From Sphyrna mokarran (lineage: Eukaryota), in NCBI GenBank assembly GCA_024679065.1, contig JAGIQG010000025.1, positions 26,536,001-26,600,000 on the forward strand: a stretch of DNA of 64,000 nucleotides, given 5' to 3'. The position numbers were made by a program, and so were the translations under genes. Position 1 is the first letter of the stretch; each line of letters opens with the position of its first letter. Shown here piece after piece: positions 9,129 through 42,015 of the stretch. Under the pieces are notes generated by a model. The model was not told where the DNA came from, did not search any database, and saw nothing but the letters and a program-made list of their open reading frames with translations.

Positions 9129-9430
9129 GGAGCAGTAAGGTGGCGCAGTGGTTAGCACTGCTGCCTCACAGCGCCAGGGACCTGGGTTCAATTCCCAGCT
9201 TAGGTCACTATGTGTGGAGTCTGCACTTCTGCATGTCATTGCAATTTTCCTCTGAGTTCTCCAGTTTCCTCCCACAGTCCGAAAGGTATGCTGGTTAGGT
9301 GCATTGGCCATGCTAAATTCTCCCTCAGTGTACCCGAACAGGCACCAGAGTGTGGCAACTTGGGGATTTTTCACAGTAACTTCATTGCAGTGTTAATGTA
9401 AACCTGTGACATGAATAAGTAAACTTAAAT
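9129..9430 (+). mobile_element. V-SINE (HE1-like), tail type 2
   Basis: tRNA head GGTGGCGCAGTGGTTAGCACTGCTGCCTCACAGCGCCAGGGACCTGGGTTCAATTCC, V core TTTCCTCCCACAGTCC...CATGCTAAATT, tail CACAGTAACTTCATTGCAGTGTTAATGTAA. Confidence 0.9.
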
Positions 9431-24458: not shown

Positions 24459-24711
24459 GAACAAAGAACAAAGAACAACACAGCACGGGAAACAGGCCCT
24501 TCGGCCCAACGAGCCCACGCCGCCATCCTAACGTCTTAATGACATATAGAGACCAATATAGGGACAATTTGTTACCCAATCAGCCTAAGAGCACATTTTT
24601 GGGATGTGGGAGGAAACCGGAGCACCCGGAGAAAACCCACGCAACCATGGGGAGAACGCGCAAACTCCCGCAGACACAGGCCCAAATCCATGTGTCTGCA
24701 CAGCAACAGCG
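24459..24711 (-). mobile_element. V-SINE body with CR1-type tail ending (GTTCTTT)n; start of head displaced to 25735-25753
   Basis: CpG-rich V core GGGAGTTTGCGCGTTCTCCCC...CTCCGGTTTCCTCCCACATCC; tail GGGCCGAAGGGCCTGTTTCCCGTGCTGTG. Confidence 0.85.
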
Positions 24712-25734
24712 ATAGTTATAGATATATAGAACATTACAGCACAGAACAGGCCCTTCGGCCTTCGATGTTGTGCCGACCAAAATAAACAGCAATGCCCCTC
24801 CAAACTAAACCATTCCCTTCTCTTCCATATACTTATCAATTAACCTCTTAAACGCCACCAAACTTGGCGCATCTACAACAGCTGCAGGCAGGGCATTCCA
24901 CTCCTAATCACTCTTTGAGTAAAGAACCTACCTCTGATATCCGTCCTATAACTCATACCCCTTAATTTAAAGCTGTGTCCCTCGTGCTAGCTTTCTCCAT
25001 CCTAGGAAAAAGGCTATCACTGTCCACCCTATCTAAACCTCTAATCATCTTATATGTTTCGATCAGGTCCCCTCTTAGCCTCCTCCTTTCTAACGAAAAA
25101 AACCTCAAATCCCTCAGCCTCTCCTCATAAGACCTGCCCTCCATACCAGGCAACATCCTGGTAAACCTCCTCTGACCCTCTCCAATGCCTCCACATCTTT
25201 CTTATAATGAGGGGACCAGAACTGCACACAATACTCCAAGTGCGGCCGCACTAGAGTTTTGTACAGTTGCAACATGATGCTGCGGCTCCTAAATTCAATC
25301 CCCCTACCAATAAAAGCTAAGACTACATATGCCTTCTTAACAACTTTATCCACTTGACTGCCTACTTTCAGGGATCTATTGACACATACACCAAGATCCT
25401 TCTGTTCCTCAACACTATTAAGAGCCCTACCATTAGCCCTATACTCTACACATTTATTGTTCCTGCCAAAATGCATTACCTCACACTTTTCCACATTAAA
25501 CTCCATTTGCCACCTCTCGGCCCCGCTCTGCAACTTGTCCAAGTCCCTCTGCAAACTATAACACCCCTCTTCACTATCTACCACTCCACCGACTTTAGTG
25601 TCATCTGCAAATTTACTAATCCATCCCTCAATACCATCATCCAGATCATTTATAAAAATTACAAACAGCAGGGGCCCCAAAACAGACCCCTGAGGCACAC
25701 CACTTGTCACCGAAAAGTGACCACTTGTCAGTCT
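24712..25734 (-). mobile_element. Young 5'-truncated CR1/HER1 LINE (CR1-A)
   Basis: SGVPQGSVLGPLLF..INDLD..KFADDTK...VRPHLEYCVQFWSP, two frameshifts (about 25170 and 24980), complete tail GGCCGAAGGGCCTGTTCTGTGCTGTAATGTTCTAT. Confidence 0.95.
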
Positions 25735-25753
25735 CTGAGCTGTCATGTTGCCC

Positions 25754-26793
25754 ATCTGATGGTCCAGTTTAAGCATACACTAACGACGTGAAGCACTAGG
25801 CCACTCCTGAAGTAACCTCCAGGAGCAGCCCTCGCACGACCTGCCGAATGCATGCACCTTGTTGGTCAACAAGGTGGACCGAATAGCCTGTGGAAACAAT
25901 TAAAGTATTTAAACAGTCCTCATATATCCCTCTATCTGCAGACCGCTCATGTGGCTGTCCAAGAGACCCTTAAACAACCCTAGCGTGCCTGCTCCCACCA
26001 CCTTACTCGGTAGTGCATTCCACACCCCCACTACCCTTTGTGTGAAAAAATGCCCTCTAATATTAGTCTTATACATAGCCCCCCTCACCCTAAGGCCGTG
26101 ACCCCTCGTTCTATCCGAATCTAATGGTGGAAAAAGCTTACCACCATTTACTCTATCTATACACCTCATAATCTTATATACCTCTAATAGATCCCCTCTC
26201 AGCCGACGTCTTTCAAGGGAAAACAACCCCAGTGCGTTCAACCTTTCCTCGTAAGACAGCCCTTCCATACCAGGCAGCATCCTGGTAAATCTCCTCTGCA
26301 CTCTCTCCAGGGACTCCACATCCTTCCGGTAGTACGGCGACCAGAACTGGACGCAGTACTCCAAGTGAGGCCTAACCAACGTTCTATACACTTGCAACAT
26401 CAAACTCCTACTCTTGTATTCTATACCCCTTCCTATGAAGGCTAACATACCATACGCTTTCTTTATCACTTTTTCCACCTGTACTGCCACCTTCAGAGAC
26501 TTGTGAACCTGCAACCCCAGTTCTCTCTGCGTCTCTATACTCCGGATAGTTTTACCTTTTATCCTATAACTCCCCTCTACAGTATTCTGGCCAAAATGCA
26601 TCACCTCGCATTTATCCGGATTAAATTCCATTTGCCATCTATCTGCCCAATCTACCAGCCTATCAATGTCCTGTTGTATTGCCTGGCACTGCTCCTCAGT
26701 CCCTGCCAATCCAAGTATCTTAGTGTCATCAGCAAATTTGCTGATCACACCACCTACCCCCTCTTCCAAGTCATTTATATAAATCACAAATAG
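25754..26793 (-). mobile_element. Young 5'-truncated CR1 LINE (CR1-B) with uninterrupted ORF2 C-terminus and atypical 3' UTR
   Basis: 292-aa open frame 26787-25909 (IYINDL, KFADDTK, RPHLEYCVQFWSP, FTQRVVGVWNALP). No canonical CR1 tail directly after the stop. Confidence 0.95.
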
Positions 26794-39341: not shown

Positions 39342-42015
39342 AAATTCATTTACTGATGTGGCCAGCTGGCTAGTCCAGCATTTATTGCCCATTCCTAGTT
39401 TACCTTGGGAAGGTGGCGTTGAGCTATCTTAGAGGTTTACAGCATGGAAACAGGCCCTTCGGCCCAACTTGTCCATGCCACCCTTTTTATTTAAACCCCT
39501 AAGCTAGTCCATATTTGGCCCACATCCCTCTATTCCCATCGCACCCATGTAACTATTTAAATGCTTTTTAGAAGATAAAATTGTACCCGCCTCTACTTCT
39601 ACCTTTGGGAGCTTGTTCCAGACACTCATCACCCTCCATGTGGAAAATTGTCCCTCTGATCCTTTTGTATCTCTCCCCTCTCACCTTAAACATATACCCT
39701 CTAATTTTAGACTCCCCTACCTTTGGGAAAAGATATTGACTATTTTGTTGATCTGTATCCTTCATTATTTTATAGACCTCTGTAAGGTCACCCCTCAGCC
39801 TCCTACGCTTCAGAGTAAAAGGTCCCAGTCTATCCAGCCTCTCCTTATAACTCAAACCATCAAGTCCCAGTAGCATCCTAGTAAATCCCTTCTGCACTCT
39901 TTCTAGTTTAATAATATCCTTCCTATAATAGGGTGACCAGAACTGTACACAGTATTCCAAGCGTGGCTTTACCAATGTTTTGTACAACTTCAACAAGACA
40001 TTCCAACTCTTACATAGAACATAGAACAGTATAGCGCAGGACAGGCACTTCGCCTCAGTGTTGTGCTGAGCTATGTCCAAATCCAAGATCAAGCTATCCT
40101 ACTCCCTATCATTCTGGTGTGCTCCATGTGTCTATCCAATTAAATTGTATTCTTGTATTCAATGTTCTGACCGATGAAACCAAGCACGTCGAATGTCCTC
40201 ACCACCAGCCTGTCCACGTGTGACTCCACCCCCAAGGAGCCACAAACATGCACTCCTAGATCTTCCCGCTCTGCAACTCTCCCCAATGTCCCACCATCAA
40301 CTGAGTAAGTCCTGCCCTTGAATCAGTGCAGTCCCTGAAGTGTAAATACACAGTGCTGTAAGGAAAGGAGTTGTAGGATTTTAACCCAGCAACTATGAAG
40401 GGACGCTGATATATTTCCAAGTCATTATGGCGAGTGACTTGGCAGGAAGCCTCTAGCTGGTGGTGTTCCTAGTTATCTGCTTTTGTCCTTCTAGATGGTA
40501 GTTGTTGTGGATTTAAAAAGTGCTCTCTCAGGAAACTTGGCGAGTTGCTTCAGTGCATCTTGTAGGTCACACACACAGCTGCCACTATTTGTTGGAAGTG
40601 GAGGGATTGAATGTTTCTGGAAAGATAGCAATAAAGCAGACTGCTTTGTCCTGGATGGTGTCGAGCTTCTTGAGTATTGTTAAAATTGTACTTGTCCAGC
40701 TAAGTGCTGAGTATTCCGTCACACTCTTGACTTATGCCATGTAAATGGTGGACAGGCTTTGGGGAGTCAGGGAGTTGCTCGCTGAAATTTTCCTACTGTT
40801 TGACCTGCTCTGGTAGCCACAGTATTTAAATGGCTAATCCAGTTCAGTTTCTGATTAATGGTAATGCCCAGGATGTTGATAATGGGGGATTCAGAAATGC
40901 GAATGCCATTGTCGCAATCCTGTCTTGTTGGAGATGGTCATTGTCTGGTACTTGTGTGGCATGAATGTTACTTGCTACTTGTCAGTTCAAGCCTGGATAT
41001 TGTCCAGGTCTTGCTGCATTTGGACTTGGACTACTTCAGTATCTGAGGGGTCACATTGTGTTGAAAATTATGCACTCAACATCAAACATCCCCACTTCTG
41101 ACATTATTACGGAAGATCATTGATGAAGCAGCTTAAGATGGTTTAGCTTTTGACATTCCCTAAGGAAATCCTGTTGTGATGATCTGCAACTGAGATGACT
41201 GATCTCCAATAGCTACAACCACCTTCCTTTGTGCCAGATATAACTTTAACCAGTGGAAGGTTCCCTCGCCCCCCGATTCACATTGACTCCAGTTTTGCAA
41301 GGGCTCCTTGATGCCACACTCAGCTAAATGCTGCCTTGATGTCAAGGGCAGTCACTCTCATGTCACCTGATGATCAGCTCTATTTTCTATGTTTGAACCA
41401 CCGGTATAATGAGATCAGAACTGAATGACCCTGCGAAACCCAAACTGAGTGTCCATGAGCAGGTTTTTTACTGAGTAAGTGCTACTTGATAGCACTGTTG
41501 ATGACCCGTTCCATCACTTTACTGATGTTCAAGAATAGACTGATAGGGTGGTAATTTGCTGAATTGGATTTGTCCTGTTACTAGTGTACAGGAGCGACCT
41601 GGACAATTTTCCACATTGCTTGGTAGATGCCAATGTTTAGGCTATACTGTAAAGGCTTGACTAGGGGCACAGAAAATTCTGGAGTATAAGTCTTCGGTAC
41701 TATTGCCAAGGAATATTGTCAAGGCCTTTGCAGTATCCAGTGCTTTTAGCCATTTCCTGATACAGTAAGAAGTGAATCGAATTGACTGAAGCCTAACATC
41801 TGTGATGTTGTGGACCTCTGAAGGAGACTGAGATGGGTCATCCACTCTGTATTCTGGCTGAAGATTATTGTGAATGCTTCAGCCTTATCTTTTGCATAGA
41901 TATGCTGGGCTTCCCCATCATTGACAGTGGGGAGACTCCTCTTCCAATGAGTTGCTTAATTATTCACCACCATTCGTGACTGGATATGGCAGCACTGCAA
42001 AGCTTAGATCTGATC
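39342..42015 (-). mobile_element. Old CR1/L2-group LINE (tail shared with SINE B), interrupted at 39431-40317
   Basis: RT-like remnants (WLKALDTAKA, VWHQG-like, RKVVVAIGDQSS). Its 3' end joins across the insertion to match 11725-12010. Confidence 0.8.
39431..40317 (-). mobile_element. CR1/HER1 3' fragment containing a further short CR1-tail insertion (40012-40150)
   Basis: LVKPRLEYCVQFWSP...LRGDLTEVYKIMK; tail GGGCCGAAGGGCCTGTTTCCATGCTGTA. Confidence 0.9.

Follow-up and report, generated by a model that had tools for sequence, protein, structure and literature searches.

The element and its layout

The window, that is, the whole 64,000-nt stretch of Sphyrna mokarran DNA that we analysed, carries on its minus strand a copy of a CR1-type LINE whose 3' UTR contains part of a V-SINE. 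Read from the whole copy down to its parts, in the direction of the element, its features are the following.

24459..26793, minus strand: V-carrying CR1 copy of subfamily B1 (the youngest sub-lineage), 5'-truncated and split by a CR1-A
25909..26793, minus strand: open 3' end of ORF2, 294 aa, with the last part of the RT domain and the C-terminus, partial RVT_1 match (E 3e-5), stop at 25909
25888..25908, minus strand: 21-nt spacer with a pyrimidine tract and CAG|G at its end, a 3' splice site
25761..25880, minus strand: predicted folded RNA domain, a three-way junction with a long hairpin (fold prediction)
25730..25753, minus strand: 5' part of a decayed tRNA-derived SINE head, A box mutated
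24717..25729, minus strand: nested 5'-truncated CR1-A, short tail of the ordinary kind, ~97% identity with other copies
24679..24716, minus strand: 3' part of the head, its 18-nt B-box segment deleted near 24689/24688 (from alignment with B6 and the free SINE majority)
24670..24699, minus strand: 9-bp hairpin, base of a longer ancestral stem (arms 24699-24691 and 24678-24670)
24561..24678, minus strand: V domain (match to the V_HCD consensus and to a bivalve V-SINE primer)
24525..24560, minus strand: fast-evolving spacer 3' of V (47-68% different, with many gaps, between deep subfamilies)
24459..24524, minus strand: CR1-type tail with a stem-loop motif and (GTTCTTT)n at its end

The copy has 8 mismatches to the majority sequence of B1 over 1082 aligned nt. 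Its outline had been drawn in a first-pass annotation, which described an intact CR1-B ORF2 end of 292 aa without a CR1 tail after its stop, then about 150 nt of structured sequence and, from 25753, a motif resembling a V-SINE head. The frame is indeed open and no CR1 tail occurs in the ~155 nt between its stop and the head motif, but it has 294 aa (26793-25909). A segment of ~135 nt after the stop folds better than its shuffles (z -5.6 in the window's subfamily), and the head motif starts where it had been placed, its tRNA-head similarity score lying above 1000/1000 shuffles. The tail with (GTTCTTT)n ends the element, also as described. Other details had to be revised. The CR1-A assigned to 24712-25734 is nested, but its limits are 24717 and 25729, giving an insert of 1013 nt flanked by a 3-nt ACT duplication (25732-25730 and 24716-24714), and the join previously drawn after its removal was 7 nt short: uninterrupted copies read GCTCAG-AGACTAT-CGCTG. 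The 9-bp hairpin is in the position reported, but it does not take the place of the B box: it formed the foot of a longer stem, and the upper part, which bore the B box, has been lost by deletion. Finally, the V core, said to be CpG-rich, is only modestly so (7 CpG, observed/expected 0.62, versus 0.20-0.58 in 12 free SINE copies). The first bases of the nested CR1-A are present twice at its start, as a short and not quite exact duplication (window 25729-25700, minus strand), and an older CR1 end of a different family, with an ordinary short tail, lies near 39500 on the minus strand.

The module belongs to an abundant autonomous LINE

We searched the genome (2.77 Gb) with different parts of the element. 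Of 1213 candidates for the 196-nt segment that follows the stop, the 40 that were scored were all 100% identical to it. All of the 30 loci fetched except the window copy (29 of 30) have head, V and tail directly after this segment, and the UTR was found upstream in 20/20 loci picked with a V motif that lies beyond the insert. As an independent test, loci were picked by ORF1 alone: head, V and tail form a single block in 34 of these 39, the others comprising one copy that breaks off, one that is internally deleted and three that are split by insertions. Since the UTR-picked and ORF1-picked loci repeat the same module, we reject a one-off nesting and uphold the earlier proposal of a LINE family that spreads a promoter-dead V-SINE piece. 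The opposite expectation, that related copies end in an ordinary tail without V, found no example among the copies of this clade. Exact matches to a degenerate 31-nt motif of the head number 32,036 in the genome, against 0 for the reversed control. This is a lower bound, and the motif misses the oldest subfamily.

The colinear copies that were to support a family were found in the host genome. They are truncated at variable 5' positions and all share the 3' end of stem-loop and short repeats. These scattered 5' ends and common 3' end are what RT priming at the tail would give. Full-length copies have ~4.6 kb. In one of them (L101), a 955-aa open frame matches RVT_1 (E 1.5e-35) and Exo_endo_phos (E 3.6e-12), i.e., it encodes endonuclease and RT; the 347-aa ORF1 of another (L090) matches Lipase_GDSL_2 (E 4.5e-5) and OSK (E 6.5e-6), both weakly and below the curated cut-offs. 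We take the family to be CR1 from its structure, the trees having contained elements of the host genome only. The module is not an independent SINE either: none of 20 head-picked loci starts at the head, only 4 of 265 copies (in a sample biased toward long copies) start within 20 nt of it, the A and B boxes are not intact and a SINE tail was not retained.

The CR1-A family does not carry the V module and is nonetheless young and abundant, which counts against the mechanism proposed below. Nesting or adjacency is frequent among young CR1 copies, often head to head or inverted (L005, L035, L049, L071, L094 and others), and many copies with a preserved 5' end have lost large internal stretches, with short microhomologies (L073, L075, L079, L080, L084, L093, L095, L098). 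Sequencing runs of several other organisms contain words from the 3' 838 nt in a fraction of 0.13-0.49, a figure that does not indicate which part is shared.

Origin of the head, the V domain and the tail

The window also holds ~21 free V-SINE heads (for example at 9148+, 14888-, 28326-, 35015-, 52745- and 53100+). They are of two types, which have head and V in common and differ in their tails, one CR1-like and one unrelated. These free SINEs are HE1-like and probably belong to HE1. The segment borne by the LINE is colinear with their majority sequence from the first base of the head to the end of V, with 154/199 identical positions in B6 and 138/182 in B1. Within V, the alignment of window positions 24668-24591 with the published V_HCD consensus (supplement of PMC6887750) is ungapped and has 66 identical positions out of 78, counted by hand, and 19 of 20 positions match a primer of the bivalve BivaV-SINE2 (supplement of PMC4824008). 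Frog V-SINE heads, as given in the supplement of PMC6887750, begin alike. ARAGORN made tRNA calls in 0/5 loci.

The similarity to both types of free SINE stops where V ends. The last ~60 nt reach local scores of 60-67 against CR1 LINE tails, versus 29 and 18 against the tails of the window's two free SINEs, which places the SINE piece inside the UTR and not at the 3' end itself. Hence, the capture of a SINE had been rightly proposed, but not its position as the 3' end of the LINE: head and V lie within the UTR and the terminal tail is of LINE type. Most likely, only head and V are SINE-derived and the terminal end is the LINE's own. Alternatively, the donor may have been a SINE family that already had the same tail and is now extinct or unsampled.

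An old capture followed by promoter decay

Six subfamilies could be distinguished among the gathered loci (B1, B2, B4, B3, B5 and B6). In a tree of 600 nt of ORF2 with 12 other CR1 rows of the host genome they form one clade (support 100/100), and the other CR1 clusters of the genome have short ordinary tails wherever their ends are readable. The median divergence of copies from the majority is 1.1-2.3% in B1-B4, 6.5% in B5 and 5-10% in B6 (7 copies), and deep pairs of subfamilies share 79-86% ORF2 protein identity; because of these values we regard the capture as old. The lineage had been called young. This holds for the sub-lineage of the window, but not for the clade as a whole, in which the subfamilies lie 1-7% from their majority sequences and the capture is old.

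B6 has the most diverged copies and lies 0.009 from the basal node of the clade. Its head is full-length, with point-mutated A and B boxes, and this long head was found in 25 of 25 measurable loci (30 fetched). The 18-nt segment that bears the B box is absent from the five younger subfamilies, so that the A box is mutated in 6/6 subfamilies and the B box is mutated in B6 and deleted in five. That the oldest subfamily keeps the segment and the younger ones do not gives the direction of transfer, from SINE to LINE. As read from these sequences, the order of events is capture, point decay and then deletion. The RT tree neither resolves nor rejects the five deletion-bearing subfamilies as a clade (p-AU 0.135); a single 18-nt deletion would be compatible with it. 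UTRs may also have been exchanged among subfamilies. We hold this account of the structure and history of the V-carrying CR1 clade with high confidence.

Head and V evolve slowly

In three deep pairs of subfamilies, head and V differ at 11/176, 8/177 and 13/177 positions (5-7%), versus 22/64, 20/64 and 19/63 fourfold sites (30-34%) in the same pairs (Fisher p 2e-7, 1e-7 and 2e-5; the pairs have branches in common and are thus non-independent, and the ~60 fourfold sites come from 210 codons of majority sequences). Among deep subfamilies more generally, differences amount to 30-39% at fourfold sites, 3-12% in the head, 4-11% in V, 10-34% in the folded domain and 47-68% in the spacer after V. In all six subfamilies 149 columns are fixed, of which 25 differ from the free SINE, and these LINE-specific columns argue against homogenisation or conversion by free SINEs. 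Judged from these alignments, head and V change far more slowly than neutral sites, and the apparent constraint fits a role at the RNA or the DNA level.

The two parts of the UTR behave differently when folded. The domain after the stop, besides its strong score in the window's subfamily, has z -1.8 to -4.4 in four others, whereas head and V alone (z -1.2 to -2.3) do not fold better than shuffles and most of their varying pairs change on one side only. An Rfam search of the post-stop domain gave no family near threshold; its three matches (E 2.9-4.3) are far under the thresholds, and we rejected a known structured RNA.

A proposed mechanism

Our results suggest, with a probability of about 0.7, that this is an autonomous CR1 clade whose 3' UTR combines a folded domain, the head and V of a V-SINE and a LINE tail, and in which the promoter-dead, constrained piece likely raises the copying of its own RNA. 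A single insertion or template switch would have placed the V-SINE 5' ~200 nt in the UTR of an ancestral CR1, upstream of the LINE's own tail, such that RT priming at this tail would copy the module in each round. Head and V, together with the folded domain upstream, would then stabilise the RNA or help ORF2p to engage the tail, and the module would be retained by the greater share of transcripts copied. We would give even odds to the more specific statement that head and V help the LINE RNA to survive or to engage ORF2p.

The 3' splice site and a spliced retrocopy

Another use of the captured block is suggested by a site upstream of it. A pyrimidine tract with CAG|G follows the stop in 6/6 subfamilies and is the best-scoring YAG|G site of each 3' region. 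The spacer from stop to site shrank from ~190 to 19-21 nt across subfamilies, and alignments of the deep subfamilies resume at CAG. One locus (L188:1462-1965, in G000:C882 near 134,822,105) is a 504-nt spliced retrocopy without both ORFs, in which the first 46 nt of the element are joined, at a GT donor, exactly to the 3' splice site, and which ends in a normal tail.

This is the sole copy with such a junction genome-wide. Of 18 full-length 5' ends, 13 have the GT donor. Both 5' UTR donors are lost in the three full-length 5' ends of the window's sub-lineage (L002, L054, L067) and kept by most slightly older copies, and the donor of B3 is weak. We found no copy with an ORF1-only spliced junction, and no spliced B3 copy in 30 loci inspected and 100 of 174 matches listed, with a pattern that left out some possible B3 donors. 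Internally deleted copies were rejected as splice products, the breakpoints of the 8 checked lying away from the acceptor. So were host exons joined to the acceptor: foreign sequence at this site occurs in 21 and 174 copies, by a rough estimate about as many as expected from 5' truncation, and the 51 loci compared showed no upstream exon in common. The 5' UTRs of B3 (L208, L212, L223, L229) have a tandem upstream unit, like promoter monomers, which carries a TATA-like motif ~25-30 nt ahead of the usual start.

Splicing is thus real and rare, probably selected against, and probably a side effect or of minor role. It enters a bolder version of our reading, in which the autonomous LINE has put the V domain of its parasite to its own use. 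The 3' splice site, the folded RNA, the decayed head and V would together make up a functional terminal-exon module, which raises copying and which, when joined to the 5' leader by splicing, would form a mobile non-coding RNA of 0.5 kb; as a whole, this version seems doubtful. We consider it unlikely that the block is instead kept for being a terminal exon, i.e., that it serves a short spliced RNA (leader, folded domain, head, V and tail) or recruits 3'-end processing factors. The persistence of the acceptor and its tract despite the shrinking spacer would fit such a role, as would the exact joint and normal tail of L188, but the latter stands alone, ORF1-only and B3 products were not seen in the material covered, and donors are missing from the window's sub-lineage and weak in B3. 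Comparable spliced copies of human L1 are reported to be dead ends (PMC5860796).

Other explanations for the conserved piece

Somewhat less probable still is conservation of head and V as DNA, as an enhancer or protein-binding site that aids transcription of the element or of a neighbouring copy. Their primary sequence is more conserved than any predicted fold, and regulatory functions have been proposed for such domains (PMC6887750, PMC5786205), but the element already has, by eye, TATA-like and initiator-like motifs in its 5' UTR. That the piece is a neutral passenger, seemingly conserved by recent recombination or conversion among copies, is very improbable: hundreds of thousands of similar templates are probably present, and internally deleted and recombined copies are common, but the flanking spacers are near saturation in the same pairs, LINE-specific substitutions are fixed in six subfamilies and the module was spared by repeated deletions of the UTR.

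An effect on copying remains our preferred reading. In an autonomous element, a V domain that is constrained without a promoter is under selection for the element's own copying, which favours a role in the life cycle of the retrotransposon.

Comparison with known systems

Sharks and rays have a pair formed by the V-SINE HE1 and the CR1-type LINE HER1 (PMC3747384), which resembles the present element in its tRNA head, V domain, CR1-type tail and host taxon. The difference is that, in that pair, a free SINE borrows the tail of a LINE, whereas here head and V lie inside the UTR of an autonomous LINE, with decayed A and B boxes. The nearest precedent is the MITE MER6/MER6A, in which a promoter-less V-SINE spread within another mobile element. 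From its account in PMC6887750, MER6 is a dead non-autonomous DNA transposon with hundreds of copies, a lost head and no shown constraint. Ours, on the contrary, is an autonomous retroelement with more than 30,000 copies. It retains the head, although in decayed form, an intermediate stage can be seen among its subfamilies, and its constraint was measured.

The element shares with canonical vertebrate CR1 with esterase ORF1 (PMC13343379) the endonuclease and RT in ORF2 and the tail of stem-loop and short repeats, and the weak GDSL/SGNH-like match of its ORF1 may be a further likeness. It departs from them in a 3' UTR of 430-650 nt with a SINE module, when the other CR1 clusters sampled here end at most ~150 nt past ORF2. 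As for L188, it recalls the human L1 SpIREs, in which spliced LINE RNA was retrotransposed, but those covered in PMC5860796 splice within the 5' UTR or into ORF1, whereas in L188, which lacks both ORFs, the 5' leader is linked directly with the 3' UTR.

Our literature search, covering mostly non-subscription papers, yielded no description of a CR1 whose 3' UTR includes a V-SINE; a repeat-library consensus may already include the sequence. Two possible precedents were considered. The TS SINE inside SolRTE, in plants, was not borne out by the pertinent text of bioRxiv 2022.11.04.512097 and PMC3747384, and a BovB with SINE pieces was not found in the literature search.

Implications

Three models compete to explain the conservation of central domains in SINEs, namely interaction with the LINE, a recombination hot spot and benefit to the host (PMC5499810). 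It has long been unexplained why domains such as V persist over hundreds of millions of years, and the V module described here would make the question testable. If the captured piece does raise the copying of its LINE, the V domain, whose conservation extends from cnidarians to fish, would be a retrotransposition enhancer. Sequence usually flows from LINEs to SINEs. Here the flow is reversed, from SINE to LINE, and an intermediate can still be seen. In genomes of this kind, LINE ends may therefore account for tens of thousands of the sequences annotated as 'SINE'.
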